From a virus: DNA of 10,991 bases. Below, piece after piece: positions 1-10,991 of this stretch (the first letter of the stretch is position 1; every line of letters starts with the position of its first letter). The stretch lies in UHGV virus genome UHGV-1820253, one strand, 5' to 3'. A model generated the notes under the pieces. It was not told the DNA's origin, made no database searches, and worked only from the letters and a program-made list of their open reading frames with translations. The position numbers and the translations under genes were made by a program.

Positions 1-758
1 CAGTGGGTTACACCGCCAATTGGCTCATCGTCGTCGTACTCCAATGCGGCTATATAGAACCCGTCACGACGAGAATAAGAAATCCCGGACATTACAATGC
101 CATCCGAAACAACAATAATGTCACCCGTTTCTTTCGGCATTCGCTCACTACAGCTTATCCAACCATCCGGAGTCACCGGAAGCGAGAACGGCAGCACATC
201 TCTGTGAACAAGTTTTTGCTGTGACAGGTTATCCAGAACTTTCTGTACTGCTGCATCACCGAATACACCAAGCGCATCTGCCATAACTCCTACAACCTGA
301 TAAGCCTCAGCGCATACCGTGGATAAACCATCCGGAATTACCGGAGAGTTGCCGGGTTCTTTAATGTGCAAGCGAGGCTCACCATCTTTTGGTTCAGGCC
401 ACTGGCGCTCCATGTTGATCTTCAATTTATCTTCCATAGCAGCGGTAATTTCAGCATCGCTGATGCCAGCACGGCGCTGTGCATCCCACAACAGGAAATG
501 CATATCAGCCCACTCGCTGAGATCGTCTGGTTCGGCTGCGGCTTCCAGAGCCTCTTTTGAGAGGTGTTTCAGTGGACCAATGGGGCCAACGCAGCCAAAT
601 GTGGAGTCAGACCATTTGGCATGCTCGTGGCGAATCAGTTCGCGTTCCAGTGATGCCAGTGCAATTCGTGCCAGTTCCATTTGTTCGCCACGAGTAAGCC
701 CGTTTTCAAGCGGATTTTTAATGAACAATTCAATACGTTCTTTGGTTATAGTGGTCAT
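1..758 (-). CDS. Hypothetical prophage protein, 3' end beyond the window (at least 252 aa); ORF track missed it because no stop codon lies inside the window
   Basis: Manual reverse-strand translation from ATG at 758-756 gives an uninterrupted frame to position 3: MTTITKERIELFIKNPLENGLTRGEQMELARIALASLERE...WISCSERMPKETGDIIVVSDGIVMSGISYSRRDGFYIAALEYDDDEPIGGVTH. GAGGG RBS 7 nt upstream. The ATG overlaps the TGA of the upstream gene (ATGA). The plus-strand ORF 319..765 over the same DNA is Ser/Arg-rich, as expected for an antisense shadow. The C-terminal part recalls DUF551/Eaa-like prophage proteins, from memory only. Confidence 0.55.
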   Translation of the reverse strand, partial: MTTITKERIELFIKNPLENGLTRGEQMELARIALASLERELIRHEHAKWSDSTFGCVGPIGPLKHLSKEALEAAAEPDDLSEWADMHFLLWDAQRRAGISDAEITAAMEDKLKINMERQWPEPKDGEPRLHIKEPGNSPVIPDGLSTVCAEAYQVVGVMADALGVFGDAAVQKVLDNLSQQKLVHRDVLPFSLPVTPDGWISCSERMPKETGDIIVVSDGIVMSGISYSRRDGFYIAALEYDDDEPIGGVTH

Positions 759-964
759 TTGTTAACCCTCAAAACTTTATGCCCGGGCGCAAAAGCACGC
801 GTTTTGTCTTTGCTTATTCGCCAGCCATCCTTGCGCGCCTCTTTTGCACAGCCAGCCCATGACGTACCTATATACTCACCGAAGTCTGGCACTGGATATA
901 CACCTTCCGTGCACTGACGGCAGTCACAATAGAGATGGATGGTGTAACTTGCAGCGATAGCCAT
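755..964 (-). CDS. Small Cys-rich hypothetical protein (69 aa; CxC-x2-C motif, possible zinc binding)
   Basis: ATG at 964-962 preceded by AAGGAG with 6-nt spacer; the track's 93-aa version starts at a GTG with no RBS. Protein MAIAASYTIHLYCDCRQCTEGVYPVPDFGEY...; stop overlaps the start of the next gene. Confidence 0.5.
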   Translation of the reverse strand: MAIAASYTIHLYCDCRQCTEGVYPVPDFGEYIGTSWAGCAKEARKDGWRISKDKTRAFAPGHKVLRVNK

Positions 965-965
965 A

Positions 966-1154
966 TCACTCTCCTTTAGTACGCAAGTGGTTTTTCCAGC
1001 GGTTTTGCGCCGCGCTGGGCTTTTTGCAAAAACCACAATCCATCATCCCGTAATGTTTCATTAACCCCATCCGTCGGTTGCTGAGTCTCACCCACTGCCA
1101 GACGCCAGGAGCGTTTCTACGAACTAACAGAATCTTTGCTTTACGGTTTTTCAT
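966..1154 (-). CDS. Small basic hypothetical protein (62 aa)
   Basis: ATG at 1154-1152 with GGAGAG RBS about 7 nt upstream; overlaps the 3' end of the upstream gene by 14 nt. Protein MKNRKAKILLVRRNAPGVWQWVRLSNRRMGLMKHYGMMDCGFCKK.... The track's longer version overlaps the upstream gene extensively. Confidence 0.4.
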   Translation of the reverse strand: MKNRKAKILLVRRNAPGVWQWVRLSNRRMGLMKHYGMMDCGFCKKPSAAQNRWKNHLRTKGE

Positions 1155-1893
1155 CGTTTTGCTCTCCTGCGTCTCCTTTGATGCAAATGCCAGCGACGCA
1201 TGGCACATTAACTTCCACGATGCGCACAGTTGGTTTGTACATCTCAATCGCTGTCAGCCAGTCAGCGCCAGTCATGCGCTTTTCTGCATCGCCATTAGTC
1301 CACTTAACCGGTACACCAATAGCCTTCATCGCGATTTCTATTTCCCCGGCGATGGCGCTTTTTCCGCAACCAGTAAAACCAGAAACAACGACAAGAACTT
1401 CACCTTTGGCTGGTTTTATTTCCCGTGCTTCCAGTTCTGCAATGCGCTTCTCTGCGGCTTCCAGCTTCTCGCGCATATCGTCAACGTACTCGACCAGAGA
1501 ACCGCCAGCAGGAATTTCGCACTCCTCGACCAGTTGGAAGTAGATATCAGCTGCGGCCCGTGTGTTGCTATGCCTAGCGTCGCCCATCTCACCTTCACGA
1601 AGAGCATCGCGTTCGGCGGTAAGATTGGCTATTTTGCTGTCTTTGCCTTCCAGCTCAACACGCAGCTTCCCTACCGTTAGCGCAATATCCTCGTTCTCCT
1701 GATCGCGGCTTTTGATGTATTGCAGGTTTCTTTCCCGTTCATCCAACAATGCCAGCGCGATATCTGGCGAAAAGTGCTTCATAAAATCGTTAAGCGCATT
1801 AATTCGCTGATCGAAAGGCATTACAGGTGCTTCACCAGCAATTTTTGTTTTTTCAGCGATTTCACGAAGCTTTTGATAATCAATCTTGCTCAC
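1141..1893 (-). CDS. Coiled-coil-rich prophage protein with C-terminal Walker-A-like motif (GFTGCGKS); N-terminus recalls Ead/Ea22-like proteins
   Basis: The track start is a TTG with no RBS. A GTG at 1893-1891 follows an AGGAGG RBS by 6 nt and overlaps the TGA of the upstream gene (GTGA). Protein from GTG: MSKIDYQKLREIAEKTKIAGEAP...; heptad-like, charged central region; C-terminus VLVVVSGFTGCGKSAIAGEIEIAMKAIG fits GxxxxGK[ST]. Confidence 0.6.
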   Translation of the reverse strand: MSKIDYQKLREIAEKTKIAGEAPVMPFDQRINALNDFMKHFSPDIALALLDERERNLQYIKSRDQENEDIALTVGKLRVELEGKDSKIANLTAERDALREGEMGDARHSNTRAAADIYFQLVEECEIPAGGSLVEYVDDMREKLEAAEKRIAELEAREIKPAKGEVLVVVSGFTGCGKSAIAGEIEIAMKAIGVPVKWTNGDAEKRMTGADWLTAIEMYKPTVRIVEVNVPCVAGICIKGDAGEQNDEKP

Positions 1894-2372
1894 TGGTTGC
1901 CTCCTTTGCGAAGCTGCTCCGCACAATGCAGCAGGGCGTCCGTCGCTTCTTTCACCGTAACGATGTCGCCATCGTCCAGCCCGGCAACCGTCGCGTCCTT
2001 AACGAACACCGAGCAAAGGTCATTAAACGCCTGCGCACGTACTTCAGCCAGGAGAGCGTCGGTGACCGGAGTTTCAGGAATCCGTCTCCTCATCCGTTCT
2101 ATTGCATGATTGAACCCGAAATCTTCAGCGAGAGATACGTCATCCATATTGTCATTGTCATCTTCAATATCCCGTGATTCTGGAATTGCAGACTTTATTC
2201 CCGCATTCTCCGCTGCCAGCGCATTAGCACGCACCAATTGCACTTCCAGTTGCGTTGCCAAATCGCTGATCAGCTTTGCCACACTGCGCATATCAACGGC
2301 ACCACATTCAGCTTTCAGTTCCGAAGCCATCTCATGCCCGGCGGAAACTAACCCTTTGATATTACTTTCCAT
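1890..2372 (-). CDS. Hypothetical acidic protein (160 aa)
   Basis: ATG at 2372-2370 with GAGGG RBS 5 nt upstream; stop overlaps the GTG start of the downstream gene; acidic (DIEDDNDNMDD); no recognisable motif. Confidence 0.55.
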   Translation of the reverse strand: MESNIKGLVSAGHEMASELKAECGAVDMRSVAKLISDLATQLEVQLVRANALAAENAGIKSAIPESRDIEDDNDNMDDVSLAEDFGFNHAIERMRRRIPETPVTDALLAEVRAQAFNDLCSVFVKDATVAGLDDGDIVTVKEATDALLHCAEQLRKGGNQ

Positions 2373-2433
2373 CTTTACCCTCGCTTATCCACATAACTTA
2401 TTGATTACATTGATAACTAAAAAGATCGTCGAT

Positions 2434-2781
2434 TCAGAACTCTTCGATGTTCCAGCCTCCACCTGCTTTCTTTGGTTTAACCGTTACCCCGATGATTCGG
2501 AACGGATACTGATCTGCGGCTACTTTGGTTTTCACCCTGGCGTCGTCGGTCCAGAATCCCCCTTTCACTTCGTACAGTTCCATCTCTCCGGTGGCGAGCA
2601 TCACAGCGAAATCGGGCGTATAGAACGTGTTGTCAGCTAACCGCAGCTTAATACCCTCGAATCGATACCAGGCGATTTCCCCTGCACGTTTACGCTGCTC
2701 AAGGTGCTGGCAATACGCAGATTCTGTTTTGTTCATCTGGCCTGTTTTGAGTCGACCAAGAGCCTGTATCTGTTTTCTCAT
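2434..2781 (-). CDS. Phage protein of unknown function (115 aa), recalls the DUF1064 family (possible nuclease-like fold)
   Basis: ATG at 2781-2779 with AGGT RBS. Motif YCQHLEQRKRAGEIAWYRFEGIKLRL...YTPDFAV...ELYEVKGG matches my memory of DUF1064 phage proteins. An operator-like palindrome overlaps its RBS. Confidence 0.55.
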   Translation of the reverse strand: MRKQIQALGRLKTGQMNKTESAYCQHLEQRKRAGEIAWYRFEGIKLRLADNTFYTPDFAVMLATGEMELYEVKGGFWTDDARVKTKVAADQYPFRIIGVTVKPKKAGGGWNIEEF

Positions 2782-2783
2782 GA

Positions 2784-2868
2784 TTTACCTCTAAGGTAAT
2801 TAAAAACCACATAAGACACGAAATCAATAGATTTTAGAATATTTTATTACCCAACAGGTAATTATCAA
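2784..2868 (-). promoter_or_regulatory. Putative internal promoter with two operator palindromes upstream of the nin-position cluster
   Basis: Minus strand reads TTGATA (-35, plus coords 2863-2868), 16-nt spacer, TAAAAT (-10, 2841-2846). The spacer is the perfect palindrome ATTACCcaacaGGTAAT (2846-2862). A second site, TTTACCtctaaGGTAAT (2784-2800), overlaps the RBS of the 2434..2781 gene. Confidence 0.45.
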
Positions 2869-2898
2869 GACGTAAAAAAATGCGCTATCGCGCTGGTA

Positions 2899-3699
2899 TT
2901 ACTTGATAAATCCTGCCGCCTTTCCCCGCCTGTATTCCTCCATCAGCCACTGCGCCGGTGTTATTCCCCCAAGGGTGGCGGCGTTAGGCATGCACCCGAA
3001 ACTTCGCCCTGGTGGATGGTAAACGTCTCTCCCTGTGTCCGGAGGTGTACTCATGGGCTCTCGCTTTGCCTGTATGCTGATCACCGGATCGGGTATCTGC
3101 TGTCCGGAAGCTACCTTTTTCGCCCAATCATCGAGCAGCCTGCGCGCGTGTTTCTCAACCTCAATCTCGCTAAGCTGGCGCTGATACATTGCACGGCGGG
3201 TATCACATACGACCCAGTACATAACCGGATGTCGCCACGGGAATCTTTCGGGACCACCAGGATATAAACTTTTTTCCTTGCTGTACCGGTGAAACTCCGC
3301 CATCACATCGTCAATGGTGACGCCAAGAACCATCTTGCTGTCTTTACACCACTTGATGAATTGCCCTGGCGACGGCCAGAACGGAGACTCACTGGCGCGG
3401 GCGTGGCGCATACCAGCAGAAACCTGTTCACGGGTTCGGATCCCCCCTTCGGCAAACGCAGCAATCCACTGCTGTTTTGCAGCAACTTCCTGCTCTGGCG
3501 TCTTCAGGTTGGTTACCACTGCCGCCGGAAACAGTTGTTTCAGCTGTTTGAAAAGGGCATCAACAAGCCTCTCTGCTGACATGTTCACCACGTTGTCATT
3601 GTTGGTGTACTGATGCTCATAACCTGACATGCGAGAAAGGGCTTCTCCGTCACGGTTTTGTATCGCGGTAAAAACGTTGTTCACAAGAAATCCTCCCAT
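2899..3699 (-). CDS. Lambda P-like replication protein (DnaB helicase loader)
   Basis: Residues AAVVTNLKTPEQEVAAKQQWIAAFAEGGIRTREQVSAGMRHARASESPFWPSPGQFIKWCKD align closely with lambda P (…RQWVLAFRENGITTMEQVNAGMRVARRQNRPFLPSPGQFVAWCRE, recalled from memory). Sits directly downstream of the O-like gene. Start may be ATG 3699 or GTG 3684, the latter overlapping the O-like stop (GTGA). Confidence 0.85.
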   Translation of the reverse strand: MGGFLVNNVFTAIQNRDGEALSRMSGYEHQYTNNDNVVNMSAERLVDALFKQLKQLFPAAVVTNLKTPEQEVAAKQQWIAAFAEGGIRTREQVSAGMRHARASESPFWPSPGQFIKWCKDSKMVLGVTIDDVMAEFHRYSKEKSLYPGGPERFPWRHPVMYWVVCDTRRAMYQRQLSEIEVEKHARRLLDDWAKKVASGQQIPDPVISIQAKREPMSTPPDTGRDVYHPPGRSFGCMPNAATLGGITPAQWLMEEYRRGKAAGFIK

Positions 3700-4496
3700 G
3701 CTTCAGGGCTGTTCCAGTGCGGAACGTTGTTATCAGGTAATGTTGATTGCTTCTGTCTGCTAATCTGCAGCCGCCTTGCCAGCTTCTGCTCCCACTGTGC
3801 CTGATGGTATGCCTTACCCTCAGCCATCCAGTAAATTCTGAACTCTGCAAGTTCCTGTGCCGTTGGCAGACTGTCCAGGTAGATCCCCTGCAATGAGCTT
3901 TTCCGAAGAAAGTCATCTGATGGCTGCCATTGTTCATGCATGACAAATTTGCCTAATTGCCCTGGCCCACCAGGAGGAACAAAGTTATTCATCACGGCGT
4001 TGTTTGCGCCGGGGTCATGATGCACAGAATCCCCGTTTTTTGTCCTGCTCTCCCTCTCTTGGTTAAATGACTGGTTATATGACTGGTTCTGGATCCCGTT
4101 TTTGGGATCATTCAACATCCCGTTTTTGGGATCATTCAACATCCCGTTTTTGGGTATATTCCCGTTTTCGGTAACATTACCGTTTTCTGGTTCATTGCCC
4201 CCCTCTCGGTTGCCTTTAATGTTCCCGTTTTTGGTTATATTAAGAGAGAAAACCCGCACTCTTTTTGTCGCTCCCTTTCTCTCTCCGGTATCTGAAATAA
4301 GCCCCATTTTCATGAGCGATATAAGCCCGGCCTGCACGGTTTTTTTATTCAGGCAAGTGTCTTTAACGAGGCGTTCTATGCTGGGGTAGCAGAGGTTATA
4401 TTCATCGGCTCTGTCAGCCATCGAGAGCAGTATGAGCTTTAATGATGAGCTACCTGGATCTGTCTCCCAGGCCCAATCTGTTGCATGTCTGCTCAT
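3681..4496 (-). CDS. Replication initiator (lambda O analog): N-terminal winged-helix DNA-binding domain, Asn/Gly/Pro-rich linker encoded by iterons, C-terminal domain
   Basis: ATG at 4496-4494 with GGAG RBS 8 nt upstream; N-terminal HTH-like region (LKLILLSMADRADEYNLCYPSIERLVKDTCLNKKTVQAGLISLMKMGLI); central repeats NGNIKGNREGGNEPENGNVTENGNIPKNGMLNDPKNGMLNDPKNG coincide with DNA direct repeats; immediately upstream of the P-like gene. Confidence 0.8.
   Translation of the reverse strand: MSRHATDWAWETDPGSSSLKLILLSMADRADEYNLCYPSIERLVKDTCLNKKTVQAGLISLMKMGLISDTGERKGATKRVRVFSLNITKNGNIKGNREGGNEPENGNVTENGNIPKNGMLNDPKNGMLNDPKNGIQNQSYNQSFNQERESRTKNGDSVHHDPGANNAVMNNFVPPGGPGQLGKFVMHEQWQPSDDFLRKSSLQGIYLDSLPTAQELAEFRIYWMAEGKAYHQAQWEQKLARRLQISRQKQSTLPDNNVPHWNSPEAWEDFL
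4093..4241. repeat. Iteron array (putative phage replication origin) inside the O-like gene: six direct repeats of about 18-20 bp, core CCCGTTTTTGG..ATT
   Basis: Copies at 4093-4112 and 4117-4136 (identical, atcccgtttttgggatcatt), 4141-4160, 4159-4178, 4179-4196 and 4222-4241 (degenerate). Spacing of 24, 24, 18 and 19 bp. Lambda ori is likewise embedded in O. Confidence 0.7.
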
Positions 4497-4511
4497 GATT
4501 AATCTCCGCTA

Positions 4512-4712
4512 TCAGCTTGAATGTTGTGGGGAGGAATTAATCATGATCTGCTTAATCTCAGCCCTGATGCGACGGTTTGATTCCATGGTGCACTCAACAC
4601 AGTGTCCGTTGTAAACCCAACGTTCACTGTCATGTCCGTGCTTACATGGTTTTCCGGTGTAGTAGCGTTTAAGTCCGCGCTTTGCGGCATCAATACGTGT
4701 AATGATTTCCAT
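4512..4712 (-). CDS. Small Cys/His-rich protein in the cII position (66 aa from ATG 4712; possible zinc ribbon)
   Basis: The track ORF starts at a TTG (4775). In-frame ATGs lie at 4748 (no RBS) and 4712 (AGGG about 6 nt upstream). Protein MEIITRIDAAKRGLKRYYTGKPCKHGHDSERWVYNGHCVECTMESNRR.... Lies between the Cro-like and O-like genes. Start uncertain. Confidence 0.5.
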   Translation of the reverse strand: MEIITRIDAAKRGLKRYYTGKPCKHGHDSERWVYNGHCVECTMESNRRIRAEIKQIMINSSPQHSS

Positions 4713-4818
4713 GGTAAGCCCTGTTATTAGTATTGGGATTACGGTCATTTTGTGCTGACACAAAAAAAAGATCAACCAGATTTGGTTTTTTATTACCTTT
4801 GAGGTGCGAATAGATATG

Positions 4819-4840
4819 AAAAGACCGCCGGGTGGCGGTC
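4819..4840 (-). terminator. Candidate intrinsic terminator or attenuator between the Cro-like and cII-position genes
   Basis: On the minus strand a 7-bp GC-rich stem (4840-4834 paired with 4829-4823) is followed by TTTT (4822-4819). The U-tract is short, so termination is probably partial. Confidence 0.4.
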
Positions 4841-4862
4841 TACAGAGGGTTGTGGCTGGATA

Positions 4863-5093
4863 TCATGAGTAGAAGAAGTATGCCAGTTCTGCTTTTGAGC
4901 GCAGCCATTGTCTTGTTTTACAGGCTTTAAAAAGCCCATTCATCAATACTTTACCTGGCATTTTGCGCTTACCTGTTAAGTGAGTCTGGATATAGTGACT
5001 CGTCGTTCCGGCTTCCTGTGCGAAGGCTTCACGCTCATCCGGAGTAAGTGCAAGCCAGTGCTTTTTGAAATCGAAATGTCCGTTATCGCTCAT
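4863..5093 (-). CDS. Cro-like small HTH DNA-binding protein (76 aa)
   Basis: ATG at 5093-5091; divergent from the repressor candidate across an operator-bearing intergenic region; first gene of the minus-strand replication operon; HTH-like segment AFAQEAGTTSHYIQTHLTG. Family assignment is tentative. Confidence 0.6.
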   Translation of the reverse strand: MSDNGHFDFKKHWLALTPDEREAFAQEAGTTSHYIQTHLTGKRKMPGKVLMNGLFKACKTRQWLRSKAELAYFFYS

Positions 5094-5117
5094 AGCTATT
5101 GCCTGATATTTATTTCA

Positions 5118-5146
5118 GATAATAAATATTCACCCATAAGGTAACA
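5118..5146 (-). promoter_or_regulatory. Putative PR-like promoter for the Cro-like/replication operon
   Basis: Minus strand TTGTTA (-35, 5146-5141), 17 nt, TATTAT (-10, 5123-5118); an operator half-site pair sits in the spacer. Confidence 0.35.
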
Positions 5147-5193
5147 AAAATCAAGGATAGTTACCTATGGGGTGCATTTACCTGTTGGGTAAT
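5128..5193. promoter_or_regulatory. OR-like operator cluster: three 17-bp sites matching WTTACC-N5-GGTAAW
   Basis: TTCACCcataaGGTAAC (5128-5144), TTTACCtatggGGTGCA (5160-5176, degenerate right half), TTTACCtgttgGGTAAT (5177-5193). They lie between the divergent Cro-like and repressor genes. Confidence 0.5.
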
Positions 5194-5247
5194 ATTGCTT
5201 TAAATTGAATCATCTACTGATTCATATACGAGGCGATTTTCCAGAAA

Positions 5248-5832
5248 ATGAAAAGTATCCAGGACGTCCGCAGGCAAAATCTCAACGACTTGATCGACCG
5301 TGAATTCAATGGTGTTCAGACGCGGATGGCAGAAAAACTTGGAACTCAGGCAAATCTGGTAAACCGCTGGGCTCTTGGCAAGAAGGTTATCGGCGACCAG
5401 GTTGCGCGAAAAATTGAAGCTGCCGCCAATAAACCCCGTAACTGGCTTGATATCGATCGCTCGCTTTCTCAGGAAGGTTTTCAGCCTGTCGGCCCAAGCG
5501 ACATTGGTCAGCTGGCGGCTCACAACCTGGAACGCTGGATGAGCGAAAGCCGCGACCTTTCAACACAGGGAAAACTTCACCGCGCATCCGGCGTCGCCCA
5601 GGTGACAATCAGCCGCCTGTTAAACAATGAGGTCAGCGTTTCCATTTCCACCCTGGAGAATGTTGCATCCGCATTCGGGCGTCACGGCTATGAATTACTG
5701 ATTCACCCGCACGACCCTGCGACCATCAACTATGACCGCTCGCGCTACGCATTGTTACCCGAAACCGAGAAAGCAAAGATCGAAAGTTACATTGAATTTG
5801 TCATCAACCAGAACGAAAAAAACAAACAATAA
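5248..5832 (+). CDS. Tandem-HTH (two XRE-like domains) transcriptional regulator; candidate prophage repressor (CI analog)
   Basis: ATG 5248; two HTH-like segments (QTRMAEKLGTQANLVNRWALGKKV and LHRASGVAQVTISRLLNNEVSVSISTLENVASAF); flanked by operator clusters on both sides; followed by a strong intrinsic terminator; no GDSM-type S24 peptidase motif seen. Confidence 0.7.
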   Translation: MKSIQDVRRQNLNDLIDREFNGVQTRMAEKLGTQANLVNRWALGKKVIGDQVARKIEAAANKPRNWLDIDRSLSQEGFQPVGPSDIGQLAAHNLERWMSESRDLSTQGKLHRASGVAQVTISRLLNNEVSVSISTLENVASAFGRHGYELLIHPHDPATINYDRSRYALLPETEKAKIESYIEFVINQNEKNKQ

Positions 5833-5852
5833 AATCATATTTTTCAGTAAGT

Positions 5853-5876
5853 AAGCCGCCTTCTGGCGGCTTTTTT
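5853..5876 (+). terminator. Rho-independent terminator downstream of the repressor gene
   Basis: Stem aaGCCGCC (5853-5860) paired with GGCGGCtt (5865-5872), loop ttct, T6 run at 5871-5876, 21 nt after the TAA stop. Confidence 0.8.
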
Positions 5877-5888
5877 ATTGTCTACACA

Positions 5889-5967
5889 ATTACCTTAAGG
5901 GTAATTTTTTTAACTCATATCTATTGACACCAAACCAAATACGCATAATCATTACCTCAACGGTAAC
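5889..5967 (+). promoter_or_regulatory. OL/PL-like region: two operator palindromes flanking a promoter for the plus-strand recombination operon
   Basis: Perfect palindrome ATTACCttaagGGTAAT (5889-5905) and ATTACCtcaacGGTAAC (5951-5967). Perfect -35 hexamer TTGACA at 5924-5929. The nearest good -10 (CATAAT, 5944-5949) is only 14 nt away, so exact promoter elements are uncertain. Confidence 0.5.
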
Positions 5968-5985
5968 AGACCGAGGTAACAAGTT

Positions 5986-6138
5986 ATGCAGTGGAAAATC
6001 ATCAACGGTTGGTACTGCGTTACTGCATGCGGATTCATGAGCTGGAAGTTCCGCACCTTACAGGAAGGCATTAAGTGGGCTTTCGTCAGCAAAGAAGCTC
6101 GCGATGTGGCCAACGATAACGAGATATGGGAGGGCTGA
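5986..6138 (+). CDS. Small ORF (50 aa), first gene after the PL-like promoter
   Basis: ATG 5986 with GAGGT 9 nt upstream; MQWKIINGWYCVTACGFMSWKFRTLQEGIKWAFVSKEARDVANDNEIWEG; stop 2 nt before the next start. Below the ORF-track length cutoff. Confidence 0.35.
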   Translation: MQWKIINGWYCVTACGFMSWKFRTLQEGIKWAFVSKEARDVANDNEIWEG

Positions 6139-6140
6139 TA

Positions 6141-6440
6141 ATGAACGTTAATCAGCAGAAAAATCTTCAAAAAATCATGCTGGCATTCGACAAGGACTAC
6201 CGCCTGTCAGAACAGCTATATGACCGACAAGTCGAACTGATTGAGAGTATCCGGCTTCATCAACTGGCCTCAACTTTTGACGTTGTAACAGGCAAAGGCG
6301 TTCGTCAGGAAGTGCTGGAGGCCGCTAAAGACAGCCCTGAGTTCGAAGAACTAATGGATGCCTACCGGCGAGAGGCAATGGCAATTATCGCCCGCTGGGA
6401 TCTGGCGGATCAGCTTGATGGACAGAAGGACGCGGCATGA
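6141..6440 (+). CDS. Hypothetical protein (99 aa) translationally coupled to the exonuclease
   Basis: ATG 6141 with GGGAGGG 7 nt upstream (preferred over the track start at 6126); TGA overlaps the ATG of the exonuclease (ATGA at 6437-6440). Confidence 0.6.
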   Translation: MNVNQQKNLQKIMLAFDKDYRLSEQLYDRQVELIESIRLHQLASTFDVVTGKGVRQEVLEAAKDSPEFEELMDAYRREAMAIIARWDLADQLDGQKDAA

Positions 6441-7258
6441 AACCGGGAATTTATTTCGGCATCAGCAACGAAGACTACCACGCCGGTGACGGCGTGAGTA
6501 AGTCGCAACTTGACATGGTTGCCAAGAATCCGGCGCTTCTTAAATGGGTTCAGGCAGCACCAGAAGACGAAGAGAAAAAGTCTGCACTGGATATGGGAAC
6601 CGCATTGCACTGTCTGCTTCTGGAACCTGGAGAATTCGACAAACGCTTCATCGTTTCACCGAAATTCGATCGTCGGACAAAACAAGGTAAAGCTGACGAA
6701 GAAGCATTTCTTCGTGATGTGGCGGATATGGGTATTACGGTACTTGATGTCGAGCAGTGGCGAAAACTGGAGCTGATGCGTGATAGCACAATGGCTCACC
6801 CGGCTGCACGCTGGATGTTGGAAGCACCTGGTTACTGCGAAGCGTCAATGTACTGGAACGATGAAGAGACGGGTGAGTTGTGCCGAATTCGTCCAGACAA
6901 ATGGCTGAACGAGCACAACGTGATCGTCGACGTGAAAAAGGTTGCAGATATGGACCGTTTTGCACGCCACATCGAGGAATTCCGCTACCACGTGCAGGAC
7001 GCAATGTACCGCGAAGGCGCAATGAGGGTTACTGGTCAGCCGCATGGTTTTTTCTTTCTTGCCGTGAGCGAAAGCATTGATTGTGGTCGGTATCCGGTAC
7101 GCGTGTTCGAGCTGGATGCGCAGGATGTCGATGCCGGGCACGCTCTGTTCCGCCGGGATCTGAATACCTATCACGAATGCCGCATCAATGATGAATGGGG
7201 CGGTGTGGAAATCATTAAACGCCCTGAGTGGGCACGCAAACAGGATATGTACATATGA
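6437..7258 (+). CDS. PD-(D/E)xK family exonuclease (RecE C-terminal nuclease-like), partner of the annealase
   Basis: Motifs GISNEDYHAGDG, GTALHCLLLEP, IVDVKKV (D-x-K) and YHVQDAMY (QxxxY), as in the RecE/lambda Exo/RecB nuclease fold; ATGA overlaps with both neighbouring genes. Confidence 0.8.
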   Translation: MKPGIYFGISNEDYHAGDGVSKSQLDMVAKNPALLKWVQAAPEDEEKKSALDMGTALHCLLLEPGEFDKRFIVSPKFDRRTKQGKADEEAFLRDVADMGITVLDVEQWRKLELMRDSTMAHPAARWMLEAPGYCEASMYWNDEETGELCRIRPDKWLNEHNVIVDVKKVADMDRFARHIEEFRYHVQDAMYREGAMRVTGQPHGFFFLAVSESIDCGRYPVRVFELDAQDVDAGHALFRRDLNTYHECRINDEWGGVEIIKRPEWARKQDMYI

Positions 7259-8196
7259 GCAACGACATCGCAAACATCAACGCACCAGTAGACACAGCAA
7301 TCGCTGGAACTGCTGCAACTATTTTCAGCCCAGACGGCTTGAACCAACTGATGAAATTCGCCGAGGTAATGGCGCAAAGCCGCGTAACGGTACCGGCGCA
7401 CCTCGCCGGGAAACCAGCTGATTGCATGGCCGTGGCAATGCAGGCTGCGCAGTGGGGAATGAACCCGTTTGCCGTGGCTCAGAAAACCCATGTTGTGAAC
7501 GGCACGCTAGGTTATGAAGCCCAATTAGTAAACGCAGTTATCTCAACGATGTCGCCAACAAAAGATCGCATCAACTACGAGTGGTTCGGGCCGTGGGAAC
7601 GCGTGATCGGTAAGTTTGTTGAGAAAACATCCAAAAACGGCAATCCATATATTGCACCAGGCTGGACTCTAAAAGACGAAGAAGGCTGCGGTGTTCGCGT
7701 ATGGGCAACCATGAAGGGCGAGGATCAACCTCGAGTGCTTGAGTTAATGCTATCTCAAGCACAGGTAAGAAACTCCACACTTTGGGCCAGTGATCCGAAA
7801 CAACAACTCGCATACCTTGCGACAAAACGCTGGTCTCGCTTGCACTGTCCTGACGTAATCATGGGCGTCTACACACCAGACGAATTACAGGAAACGGCAC
7901 CGCGCGTTGAGCGAGACATTACTCCGCAAACGACCACTGCTGCGGGAATGAACAGTCTGATCAACGCTAAACAAGTGAAAAAGCCTGATGAGCAAACGCG
8001 TAAAGCGGATAGCCGTGATCCAGAAGAAATGCTGATGGCCTTTACCAGCGCAGCGATGAATTACAGCACTGTCTCCGAACTGGATAAAGCTTACAAATAC
8101 ATTGCACAAAAACTTTCAGATGATGACGAACTGCTGGCAAAAGCCACCGACGTTTACAGCGTTCGTCGGGAAGAATTAAACGAAACATCTATGTAA
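7255..8196 (+). CDS. RecT/Red-beta family single-strand annealing protein
   Basis: ATG 7255 overlaps the exonuclease TGA (ATGA); the track's 7228 start is a GTG inside the exonuclease gene. Similarity to RecT-family annealases recalled from memory, plus the classic exonuclease-annealase pairing. Confidence 0.8.
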   Translation: MSNDIANINAPVDTAIAGTAATIFSPDGLNQLMKFAEVMAQSRVTVPAHLAGKPADCMAVAMQAAQWGMNPFAVAQKTHVVNGTLGYEAQLVNAVISTMSPTKDRINYEWFGPWERVIGKFVEKTSKNGNPYIAPGWTLKDEEGCGVRVWATMKGEDQPRVLELMLSQAQVRNSTLWASDPKQQLAYLATKRWSRLHCPDVIMGVYTPDELQETAPRVERDITPQTTTAAGMNSLINAKQVKKPDEQTRKADSRDPEEMLMAFTSAAMNYSTVSELDKAYKYIAQKLSDDDELLAKATDVYSVRREELNETSM

Positions 8197-8607: not shown

Positions 8608-8903
8608 GAAAGTTAAGCCGACTTGAAAAATATCACATGAACAAGGTTTCAATGCGCAGTCCGTCAAAGATTGTCGCCGTTACTCCTGCGGCGATAGAGT
8701 TCGAAAAACGCGCAATTGAAAGAGAGAAAAAAGGACAGTTCCGCATTGCCGCTCACCTTTGGCTTAAGTGTATGGATGTTGCTTCTGGTGATGTTGAGCG
8801 TGCAAGGATCGCGGTTCGCAGGGACCAATGTATCACAAAAGGTAACGGCCTTCGCCGTGGCGACTATAGCGGCATAGGATGTTGCGGGGTGGTTTATGAC
8901 TAA
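8604..8903 (+). CDS. PerC-family-like putative transcriptional activator
   Basis: Motif EKKGQFRIAAHLWLKCMDV...ERARIAVRRDQC recalls PerC/Pch-like prophage regulators. Start uncertain: GTG 8604, ATG 8637 or ATG 8652. 3' end overlaps the methyltransferase start by 8 nt. Confidence 0.5.
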   Translation: MRKLSRLEKYHMNKVSMRSPSKIVAVTPAAIEFEKRAIEREKKGQFRIAAHLWLKCMDVASGDVERARIAVRRDQCITKGNGLRRGDYSGIGCCGVVYD

Positions 8904-9546
8904 GAAATACACGCTAATCTATGCAGATCCCCCCTGGGTATACCGGGACAAAGCCGCAGATGGTAATCGCGGTGCCGGTTTTAAATATCCGGTTATGAGT
9001 GTGCTGGATATCTGCCGCCTTCCTGTGTGGGATTTGGCCGATGAAAACTGTCTGTTGGCCATGTGGTGGGTGCCAACACAACCACTCGAAGCACTAAAAG
9101 TTGTTGAAGCCTGGGGATTCCGTCTGATGACCATGAAGGGTTTCACGTGGATAAAATGTGGTAGTCGACAACCAGATAAACTGGTTATGGGTATGGGACA
9201 CATGACTCGCGCCAATAGTGAAGATTGCCTGTTTGCGGTAAAGGGAAAATTACCTACGCGCATTAATGCAGGGATCGTTCAGTCATTTACCGCACCGCGG
9301 CTTGAGCATTCAAGAAAACCAGATGTCGTTCGTGAAAAACTTGTGCAATTGTTAGGCGATGTTTCTCGCATTGAACTGTTCGCCCGCCAGTCGTCTCATG
9401 GCTTCGATGTTTGGGGTAATCAGTGCGAAGACCAGGCAGTGCAACTACATCCTGGATACGCGTTGGATATTGGCGGATTAACAAATGCATTCAGCAATGC
9501 TCCGCTGTCACCAACAGACAACCAGGGGCGGGAGCGTGCAGCATGA
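8896..9546 (+). CDS. MT-A70 family DNA N6-adenine methyltransferase (orphan, no cognate endonuclease in window)
   Basis: N-terminal catalytic DPPW motif (LIYADPPWVY) and overall MT-A70-like layout; 216 aa. Confidence 0.85.
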   Translation: MTKKYTLIYADPPWVYRDKAADGNRGAGFKYPVMSVLDICRLPVWDLADENCLLAMWWVPTQPLEALKVVEAWGFRLMTMKGFTWIKCGSRQPDKLVMGMGHMTRANSEDCLFAVKGKLPTRINAGIVQSFTAPRLEHSRKPDVVREKLVQLLGDVSRIELFARQSSHGFDVWGNQCEDQAVQLHPGYALDIGGLTNAFSNAPLSPTDNQGRERAA

Positions 9547-9740: not shown

Positions 9741-10991
9741 TTATTCCCCCGCCATCCACTTCTCAAACTTCGACGGGGAGAACGGAATCAGATCCGTATG
9801 CTCCCCGTTAATCCAGGAATCAATCATATCGGCCCACTGCTGCAACATGTAGGCGCGCTGTCTGGCGTATTCCGCTTTGTTATATACGGCGCGCACACCT
9901 TTCTGCTCATGTGCCAGAGCCTTTTCAATCCAGTCTGAAGGATAACCAGCCTCATGCAACAACGTACTGGCTGTACGGCGCATATCGTGTACGGTGAAGC
10001 CCTGAATATGCTCACCATCTTCATTTATTATTTTCACCGTTCTGTCGATCAGAGAGTTCAGCGCGGCATTAGATAATGGCTTCCGGAAATTGTAACGACC
10101 AGGAACCAGATATTCACTTCCACCAGCGCACATCTGCAACCCAACCAATATATCCTGTGCCTGTTTAGGCAGGTAAATAACGTGCGCCCGGCTTCCCTTC
10201 ATGCGGTCTGAAGGAATTGTCCATGTCCATTTTTTAAAATCTATTTCATCCCACGTTGCATTGGTGAATTCGCCTTTACGAACCATAGTGATAAGCACCA
10301 GCTTTAAAGCCATTTTCATAGTGCCCATAGCACCAATGGCATCCAGCGTGCGGAAGAACAGGCCAATTTCTTCTGGTGTCAGTGTTCGCTCTCGTGGTTT
10401 AAATATGGCGATAGACGAAGGTTTAATGTCAGCCGCAGGATTAAACAAACCATGACCACGGTCATTGGCGTGACGGTATACGCTGCTGATGATCTCCCTG
10501 GCCTGTACTGCTGTTGCCCGACCACCTCGTTCGACAATCCGGTCACACAAATCACGAACCATCGATGTGGTAATTTCAGCCATCATTTTGTTGCCAAGAA
10601 CCGGAAGTATGTCACGGTCGATCACCGCCTGCTTCATTGCGCGGGTACTGTCAGCCAGGATGACGTGTTTCATATAACTGTCGGTATGTACCGCAAACGT
10701 CTCGGCACCACGAATCTTTTTGATACCGTCACGTTTAGCCGCAGCCGGTGACTGGCCTGCTTTAAGCAGCTTCTTTGCAGCAATCAGTTCTTCTCGCGCT
10801 TCTGCCAGGCTGATACCGTCACGCCCATACTGCCCGATTACCAGTGTTTCGCGGCGACCGTTGATACGGTAGTCATAGCGAAACGAGACCGTGCCTGACG
10901 TAAGCACAGCTACATACAGCCCGTCACGGTCGGAGACCTTGTACAGTTTGTCCTGCGGCTTGAGGTTTTTTAATTTTGTATCGGTAAGCAC
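9741..10991 (-). CDS. P4-family tyrosine integrase (N-terminal arm-binding domain plus catalytic domain); 5' end at or just beyond the window edge
   Basis: 416 aa; N-terminus LTDTKLKNLKPQDKLYKVSDRDGLYVAVLTSGTVSFRYDYR is typical of P4-type integrases; catalytic-region motifs HDMRRT and VRAVYNKAEY. The first codon at the edge is a GTG, so the true start is probably a few codons outside the window. Confidence 0.9.
   Translation of the reverse strand: MLTDTKLKNLKPQDKLYKVSDRDGLYVAVLTSGTVSFRYDYRINGRRETLVIGQYGRDGISLAEAREELIAAKKLLKAGQSPAAAKRDGIKKIRGAETFAVHTDSYMKHVILADSTRAMKQAVIDRDILPVLGNKMMAEITTSMVRDLCDRIVERGGRATAVQAREIISSVYRHANDRGHGLFNPAADIKPSSIAIFKPRERTLTPEEIGLFFRTLDAIGAMGTMKMALKLVLITMVRKGEFTNATWDEIDFKKWTWTIPSDRMKGSRAHVIYLPKQAQDILVGLQMCAGGSEYLVPGRYNFRKPLSNAALNSLIDRTVKIINEDGEHIQGFTVHDMRRTASTLLHEAGYPSDWIEKALAHEQKGVRAVYNKAEYARQRAYMLQQWADMIDSWINGEHTDLIPFSPSKFEKWMAGE

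Follow-up and report, generated by a model that had tools for sequence, protein, structure and literature searches.

Gene organization of the cluster

The window analyzed in this study, that is, the whole stretch of DNA, comprises 10,991 nucleotides (nt) of the virus genome UHGV-1820253 and belongs to a phiV10/epsilon15-like (Uetakevirus-type) prophage. We focused on positions 1141-2781, where three genes lie on the minus strand directly 3' of a gene resembling lambda P. Our results suggest that this region is probably the beginning, on the promoter side, of a longer accessory operon expressed early by the prophage, and not a self-contained three-gene system.

Gene 1 (2434-2781) encodes a 115-amino acid (aa) DUF1064 protein and starts with ATG, with a GAGG Shine-Dalgarno sequence 6 nt 5' of it. 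Gene 2 (1890-2372) encodes an acidic protein of 160 aa (isoelectric point 4.49; 30 acidic and 16 basic residues) and is a recombinant hybrid, Eae-like and related to Ead_Ea22. Gene 3 (1141-1893) encodes a 250-aa protein of the Ead/Ea22 family and starts with GTG, preceded by AAGGAGG at 6 nt. A preliminary description of this DNA, made from the letters alone, had proposed three tightly packed genes of these sizes with a GTGA overlap, and this layout is present: the gene 2 stop and the gene 3 start overlap in GTGA at 1890-1893, which suggests that gene 3 is translationally coupled to gene 2. The GTG start of gene 3 is backed by the alignment of its N-terminus, MSKIDYQKLRE, with that of lambda Ea22, MSEINSQALRE, and by 250-aa gene calls in 24 public contigs.

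Pfam and NCBIfam searches gave no match of the three proteins to any nin family (NinB, NinG, and others), and sequence searches of all three against Protein Data Bank (PDB) chains gave nothing below an expectation value (E) of 0.25. Rfam detected nothing at gathering thresholds over the whole window, and the base-composition profile of the window revealed no compositional island. The plus-strand open reading frames (ORFs) at 1078-1680 and 2110-2640 were treated as antisense shadows and left out of the family and database searches.

Promoter and operators upstream of gene 1

The P-like gene ends with a stop codon at 2899-2901, and a small hairpin lies between this gene and gene 1. This putative small intrinsic terminator (2874-2893, minus strand) consists of a GCGC-GATA-GCGC hairpin at 2882-2893, followed by an A and seven T residues at 2874-2880. 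In the phiV10 annotation, the corresponding position carries a putative rho-independent terminator. The scan tool did not call it because the stem has four pairs only.

A predicted sigma-70-type promoter, TTGATA-16 nt-TAAAAT (2868-2841, minus strand; 10 of 12 consensus matches), reads into the DUF1064 gene. Its -35/-10 spacer is filled by a 15-bp operator palindrome of the TTACC-N5-GGTAA type, TTACCCAACAGGTAA (2847-2861), which is the exact reverse complement of the OR (right operator) site at 5178-5192. A second palindrome, TTACCTCTAAGGTAA (2785-2799), is located 62 bp from the first, over the Shine-Dalgarno sequence of gene 1. Six copies of the TTACC-N5-GGTAA pattern are present in the window, where 0.13 would be expected, and none of 200 shuffles reached this count. 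The remaining four copies flank the repressor gene: those at 5130-5144 and 5178-5192, in the interval between the cro-like and repressor genes, form a PR/OR-like region, and those at 5890-5904 and 5952-5966, just beyond the repressor gene, form a PL/OL-like (left operator) region. The PR-like promoter (5147-5119, minus strand) has the same operator-in-spacer geometry as the gene 1 promoter. In addition, the operator pair and its 62-bp spacing are kept in phiV10 and in all phiV10-like loci fetched, and are absent from D6-like loci.

We made the promoter call because the operator fills the spacer and the arrangement is conserved in relatives. The same palindromes, the shared geometry, and the conserved pair further lead us to infer that the gene cluster has a third promoter under direct control of the immunity repressor. 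The operator-bearing promoter proposed earlier for this cluster is supported as a prediction.

Other elements were observed around these sites. A degenerate operator copy, TTACCTATGGGGTGC, lies at 5161-5175, and a PL-like promoter on the plus strand (5924-5952) lies near the operator copies beyond the repressor gene; the palindromes at 2785 and 2847, the PR-like sites, and the PL-like sites make three operator regions in total. The repressor (5248-5832, plus strand; 194 aa) has two helix-turn-helix regions, one YdaS-like (residues 21-61) and one of the HTH_3 type (residues 106-147). In principle, the two halves of the 15-bp palindrome could both be recognized by a single chain. A perfect 8-bp inverted repeat, TTATCAAG at 2862-2869 and CTTGATAA at 2902-2909, brackets the P stop codon and the small terminator hairpin. 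It also overlaps the -35 hexamer of the gene 1 promoter, and in read-through transcripts it might fold into an alternative structure. Outside the window, phiV10-like prophages carry a further perfect operator-like palindrome where the gene for the terminase small subunit begins, either at its start or just within it (75-89 in fetched locus L003, 7059-7073 in L004 and L005, and 7245-7259 in L009).

Gene 1 encodes a predicted PD-(D/E)XK nuclease

The gene 1 product matched Pfam DUF1064 (PF06356) with 26.1 bits against a gathering cutoff of 24.7, and PHROG 190, labelled Holliday junction resolvase, with an E of 3e-43. A nuclease of the PD-(D/E)XK type has already been predicted for DUF1064 (PMC1189080). 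Among 31 homologues (77-92% identity), E20, P56-D57, and E71-V-K73 were invariant, and E20, D57, E71, and K73 are candidates for the catalytic residues. The AlphaFold2 (AF2) model, with a predicted local distance difference test score (pLDDT) of 83.6, has an alpha-beta-beta-beta-alpha-beta core composed of a helix (18-32), three strands (36-40, 58-62, and 67-73), a helix (79-91), and a strand (95-101). Almost all structures retrieved by Foldseek with this model were PD-(D/E)XK nucleases. The top match was Hjc (2wj0; probability 0.99, template modelling (TM) score 0.50), and AdnAB nuclease, DrdV, VRR-NUC, and Cas4 came next.

These results indicate that gene 1 encodes a small, intact PD-(D/E)XK nuclease with a predicted Hjc-like fold, most likely a structure-specific endonuclease or Holliday-junction resolvase acting on replication or recombination intermediates. 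DUF1064 resembles the archaeal Hjc resolvases in length (approximately 115-125 aa), in the core, and in the E...PD...ExK residues. In contrast, sequence identity is approximately 15% and the TM-score approximately 0.5, and resolvase activity is extrapolated from these likenesses. We found no biochemical report on any DUF1064 protein in the literature searched.

Gene 2 is a recombinant hybrid

The relatives of gene 2 are named eae-like or hypothetical in RefSeq. Its product matched PHROG 492 at 8e-46 and gave strong matches to unnamed PHROGs, and a crude heptad scan flagged nothing. We aligned gene 2 in segments with variants of 153, 170, 182, 191, and 214 aa. The first approximately 55 residues are of the phiV10 type, while the remainder is of the D6 type, and all variants end in ...AEQLRKGGNQ*, a sequence that also encodes the Shine-Dalgarno sequence and the overlapping start of gene 3. 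The exact gene 2 sequence occurs on just four public contigs.

Comparison with fetched loci by blastn located the joint between the two types. Left of it, window positions 736-2222 show 99.3-99.5% identity to D6-like phage-plasmids; right of it, positions 2200-5388 show 98% identity to phiV10. The two blocks meet in 23 bp (2200-2222) common to the phiV10-type and the D6 phage-plasmid-type sequence, and the crossover therefore lies inside gene 2. The joint also points to an exchange of sequence, with an integrating podovirus-type prophage on one side and a P1-like phage-plasmid on the other.

We also considered whether genes 2 and 3 are one split ea22 gene, as PHROG 250 covers residues 1-65 of gene 2 and then gene 3. 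This was rejected because every gene 2 variant has its own conserved end and the junction is kept in two unrelated elements.

Gene 3 carries an Ea22-type scaffold

Gene 3 matched the Pfam family PF13935 with 63.9 bits (cutoff 27) over residues 13-166 and profile positions 1-139, and PHROG 250 at 1e-64; RefSeq labels it an ead/Ea22-like family protein. Residues 1-88 (1630-1893, minus strand), which cover the N-terminal segment and the beginning of the coiled coil, showed 57% identity to residues 1-79 of lambda Ea22 (BLASTP, E 1e-23). The coiled coil proposed in the preliminary description is partly supported: it agrees with the homology to the coiled-coil region of lambda Ea22, and a crude heptad scan flagged residues 27-49 and 131-160.

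Three parts make up an Ea22 protein: a short N-terminal segment, then a coiled coil, and finally a C-terminal domain that varies. The proteins form tetramers in which the C-terminal domains are dimeric (PMC10834534). Four C-terminal types have been described, lambda, V1, V2 (DUF551), and V3, and the known Ea22 C-terminal domains are dimeric and mildly acidic and have no known enzymatic activity (PMC10834534). A pro-lysogenic effect of Ea22 is known only in lambda and in some Shiga toxin (Stx) phages (PMC7093339, PMC10834534). Gene 3 resembles lambda Ea22 and the V1-V3 proteins of Stx phages in its N-terminal segment, in the start of the coiled coil, and in passing the PF13935 threshold. The junction to the C-terminal domain is also alike, KRIAELEAREIKPAKGEVLVV in gene 3 and KRIAKLESNEVREDGNQFLVV in lambda Ea22, and the proteins are built on one mosaic plan, in which the scaffold is constant and the mildly acidic C-terminal domain can be swapped. 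In contrast, the C-terminal domain of gene 3 is unrelated to that of lambda Ea22, with no sequence match in the PDB. The location also differs, since ea22 of lambda lies in the exo-xis region of the PL operon, whereas genes 2 and 3 lie 3' of P, on the PR side, behind their own putative operator-controlled promoter.

The C-terminal domain of gene 3 contains a Walker A motif

The Walker-A-like motif GFTGCGKS noted earlier near the C-terminus of gene 3 was confirmed at residues 172-179 (nt 1357-1380), with 72 residues between K178 and the C-terminus. It belongs to a portable domain of approximately 68 aa (residues 164-231; 1201-1404, minus strand), of which the other motifs are AGEIEI, W, EK, T..DW, E.YKP, and I-V-E227-x-N. 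A full-library search placed the domain in 436 protein clusters (50% identity), distributed over proteobacterial phages. Of the 265 proteins retrieved, 249 have it at the C-terminus, 12 at the N-terminus, and 4 internally, and it was fused to partners without Pfam domains. Twenty-nine records of the phage collection carry it, including D6, phiV10, phiv142-3, and Burkholderia and Ralstonia phages, and no Stx phage record does. Because of this absence from the Stx phages in the collection, the domain is not among the four described Ea22 types, and the Ea22 literature that we searched did not contain this type. A contig scan yielded eight loci with the domain, in Enterobacterales, Burkholderiales, Methyloversatilis, and Methylobacterium; because an exact peptide pattern was needed, the scan shows breadth and not abundance.

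The domain also occurs without any Ea22 scaffold. In the Burkholderia phage protein BcepC6B gp37 (199 aa; L015, 2414-3013), encoded among exonuclease, DUF2815, and methyltransferase genes, it is N-terminal; in proteins of 380-534 aa of Ralstonia and Burkholderia jumbo phages, namely RSL2 ORF127 (L016, 1494-2636) and the FLC8 protein (L017, 769-2373), it lies mid-protein. A reading of BcepC6B gp37 as the domain fused to a DUF550 pyrophosphohydrolase was rejected, as Pfam shows no DUF550 there.

In the GxxGxGKS motif, all three glycines as well as the lysine and the serine were invariant over 21 diverse copies, from enterobacterial prophages to Burkholderia and Ralstonia jumbo phages and down to 31-36% identity. 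The glutamate that closes a hydrophobic strand (R-I-V-E227), a candidate Walker B element of the hhhhE pattern, was likewise invariant over the 21 copies. This conservation indicates that the Walker A motif is real and under strong constraint. Searched against the PDB, the domain profile matched P-loop nucleoside triphosphatases (NTPases) only, namely ABC proteins, UvrA, small kinases, and the designed minimal P-loop proteins 6c2u and 9jix. The domain shares with them the strand-Walker A-helix unit, the full GxxGxGK[ST], and a putative hhhhE strand that follows. In contrast, it has approximately 68 residues in total, no detectable similarity beyond the first 40, and no predicted five-stranded sheet; the PDB matches cover strand-loop-helix alone, with E values of 8e-4 or worse. 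The size argument of the preliminary description, that the region is far too small for a conventional NTPase, therefore holds. A likeness to the first approximately 65 residues of shikimate kinase (D-x-D and EKR-TGAD) was unsupported, the match covering the P-loop only with an E of approximately 0.3.

Two explanations of this domain have to be weighed. The first is that it is a true minimal P-loop that binds, and possibly hydrolyses, nucleotide, with the sheet and the active site completed by oligomerising on the Ea22 coiled coil, and that it senses, sequesters, or hydrolyses a nucleotide. We regard this explanation as possible, if on the unlikely side. The invariance of the loop and of the I-V-E glutamate across distant phages favors it, as do the exclusive matches to P-loop NTPases, the maintenance of the domain as a unit that is mostly C-terminal and also N-terminal or internal, and the tetrameric architecture of Ea22 with its dimeric C-terminal domains (PMC10834534). 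Several observations weigh against it. The domain has only three predicted strands, and neither an arginine finger nor a sensor motif is evident in it. Pfam contains no family for it, and every P-loop match in Pfam was below threshold; the domain shows neither the three-layer alpha/beta P-loop fold, with its sheet of five or more strands, nor a match to a curated P-loop family. The AF2 model of the domain (pLDDT 76.7) has three helices, one of which starts at K178, and no paired strands, and a structure search of this model against the PDB gave no match. Because of the unpaired model and the missing PDB match, the P-loop reading draws on sequence motifs only.

The second explanation is that the motif is structural and does not bind a ligand, the domain being a dimerisation or partner-binding module like that of lambda Ea22. 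This is about as likely as the first explanation. The known Ea22 C-terminal domains are of just such a nature (PMC10834534), the gene 3 domain is also mildly acidic, with an isoelectric point of 5.05, and its predicted model is not P-loop-like. In contrast, the strict Gly/Lys/Ser invariance across distant lineages is as expected of a functional phosphate-binding loop, and the profile matches are exclusively to genuine P-loop proteins. As modelled, the domain is too unlike a P-loop NTPase, and it is too small, to be filed as one. Folding that depends on oligomerisation on the coiled coil is plausible. The gene 3 domain is an uncharacterised, portable mini-P-loop domain and the one lead worth following.

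Genomic context and extent of the operon

Window positions 1-6372 are 100% identical to a metagenome contig in ENA (ERZ1310075 NODE_1834), with the same gene order. At 80% coverage, positions 1000-2900 were found in no phage record and in 0 of 5,426 complete E. coli genomes. The single genes were found whole in 488 (DUF1064), 27 (gene 3), and none (gene 2) of these genomes, and in pieces in 1,891 (gene 3) and 762 (gene 2).

Exact copies of gene 3 occur in two unrelated contexts. In one, that of phiV10-like prophages, P is followed by DUF1064, then by a variable gene of 153, 160, or 170 aa, and then by gene 3. In the other, that of D6-like phage-plasmids, the gene preceding gene 3 is an Ead_Ea22 gene of 214 aa, and neither DUF1064 nor P is found close by. 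In relatives from both E. coli and Klebsiella, the DUF1064 gene keeps its place directly 3' of P, and it is the genes beyond it that change. In the Klebsiella relatives, both the number and the type of these genes differ, and the distance to an Ead_Ea22-type gene is not constant. A Pseudomonas aeruginosa assembly has DUF1064 next to and 3' of a YbcO gene, in a nin-like region that lacks an Ea22 gene. This turnover among relatives bears out the description of the site as a hypervariable accessory slot.

phiV10 itself (NC_007804) shares the backbone, the arrangement of terminator, promoter, and operators, and the DUF1064 gene with the window. Its site holds four genes, p45-p48 (DUF1064, eae-like, hypothetical, and ead/Ea22-like), against three in the window. 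The phiV10 eae-like gene has only the first approximately 55 and the last approximately 10 residues in common with gene 2, and p48 ends in the same C-terminal domain as gene 3 (96% identity), whereas its Ea22 body is unlike that of gene 3, with only patches at 90-97% identity.

The operon does not end with gene 3. A gene for a 62-aa basic protein (966-1154, minus strand) starts within gene 3, with an overlap of 14 nt, and is followed by a gene for a 69-aa Cys-rich protein (755-964, minus strand; PHROG 926). These two genes accompany gene 3 in both genomic contexts (gene calls for the 62-aa protein at 4740-4928). Next comes a gene for a DUF550 dATP/dGTP pyrophosphohydrolase with the start of a DUF551 domain (1-758, minus strand; PF04447, E 1e-41; PF04448, 1.8e-5), which runs off the window and of which the ATG overlaps the stop of the 69-aa gene (ATGA at 755-758). 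A scan for minus-strand terminators over 700-2434 detected none. As judged from this layout, the operon continues for at least three overlapping genes past gene 3.

These results bear on the proposal of the preliminary description that the three genes form an undescribed dedicated module for superinfection exclusion, anti-defence, or a recombination helper function. The tight packing, the GTGA overlap, and the shared regulated promoter are in its favor, and phiV10-like prophages from E. coli and Klebsiella usually have an Ead_Ea22-family gene at some point 3' of DUF1064. We nevertheless regard such a module as very improbable. The trio was absent from the complete E. coli genomes and the phage records, its parts occurring in 488, 0, and 27 genomes; exact gene 3 resides in D6-like phage-plasmids without DUF1064, and DUF1064 occurs without any Ea22 gene in Pseudomonas aeruginosa. 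The set of genes that separates DUF1064 from the Ea22-type gene is not constant in number or type, gene 2 itself contains a recombination joint, and the operon extends past the trio. Searches with PADLOC and NCBIfam gave zero matches for the three proteins and for the two small downstream proteins. Profile searches placed all three genes in named families (DUF1064 and Ead/Ea22), and the trio does not co-occur; this largely amounts to the outcome that the preliminary description gave as refuting a module, although these families are named and not functionally well characterised. The region is an ordinary mosaic accessory slot of a temperate phage, and the combination of the three genes is a one-off recombinant.

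Beyond these genes, the rest of the window resembles a standard prophage left arm, judged by ORF layout. Tandem ORFs of 273 and 322 aa occupy 6437-8196 and an ORF of 216 aa lies at 8896-9546, all on the plus strand. A 416-aa ORF at the window edge (9741-10991, minus strand) reads, from ORF layout alone, like a tyrosine integrase.

Discussion

We favor the interpretation that 1141-2781 is the first part of a longer early accessory operon. Its own sigma-70 promoter would sit just after the small terminator that follows the replication gene P, and the prophage repressor would keep it off in the lysogen through the two copies of the 15-bp palindrome, one in the promoter spacer and the other about 40 bp downstream of the predicted start. 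Upon induction or infection, the genes would be expressed jointly, and the overlapping stops and starts suggest translational coupling. The gene 1 nuclease would process branched replication or recombination intermediates, filling the role of NinG/Rap or RusA in the nin regions of other lambdoid phages.

The Ead/Ea22 family is assembled by recombination from interchangeable segments. Gene 3 joins an N-terminus and coiled-coil scaffold of the lambda Ea22 type to a C-terminal payload of another kind. By analogy with Ea22 of lambda and of Stx phages, the scaffold would oligomerise, display multiple payloads to a target in the host or the phage, and adjust the balance between lysis and lysogeny. 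The payload, with a predicted order of strand-P-loop-helix-strand-helix-strand, probably binds a ligand that carries phosphate, such as a nucleotide or a nucleic acid, and is likely to do so only when oligomeric; this step is speculative.

Several points count against parts of this interpretation. The number of promoter-scan hits was at the chance level. The Foldseek E-values for gene 1 were weak, approximately 0.03 at best, though the list was uniformly PD-(D/E)XK. The assignment of gene 2 to Ead_Ea22 is borderline (27.3 bits against a cutoff of 27, over profile positions 83-133 only), and BLASTP showed no similarity between gene 2 and lambda Ea22. Genes 2 and 3 do not have the exo-xis/PL-operon location of ea22, and Ea22 activity is presumably carried by the C-terminal domain, which differs in gene 3. 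The transfer of a pro-lysogenic role to gene 3 is an extrapolation, because ea22 of lambda does not follow P and because the C-terminal domains differ.

The cluster resembles the nin region of lambda (P to Q, including NinB/Orf and NinG/Rap) in its position relative to the replication genes and in its content of variable, small, overlapping, non-essential-looking genes, including a DNA-structure nuclease. In contrast, there is no sequence relation between the two regions, and an apparent directly repressed promoter takes the place of antiterminated read-through from PR.

The label of a three-gene "module" matters little, and showing that the region is a typical patchwork prevents over-interpretation. 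Two points are of some value. First, proteins of the Ea22 family are widespread, pieces of gene 3 being present in roughly one in three complete E. coli genomes. They affect the choice between lysis and lysogeny in phage lambda and in the Shiga-toxin phages, although neither a ligand nor a partner is known, and screens of lambda Ea22 with monomeric baits came up empty (PMC10834534). With its invariant loop of the phosphate-binding type, the domain described here offers a concrete, mutable handle, K178, for finding an Ea22 ligand or partner. We consider it rather improbable that the domain is a natural minimal P-loop that binds nucleotide or nucleic-acid phosphate only in multiple copies, on the Ea22 coiled coil, and serves as a portable phage sensor or sponge for a host nucleotide signal; if true, it would be a new domain family, a new way to build a P-loop site, and the first ligand of the Ea22 family. 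Second, a conserved 68-residue domain with a full Walker A motif bears on the minimum size of a working P-loop unit. Finally, the putative third repressor-controlled promoter provides insights into how epsilon15/phiV10-type phages may switch on their accessory genes, apparently without the antitermination logic of lambda.

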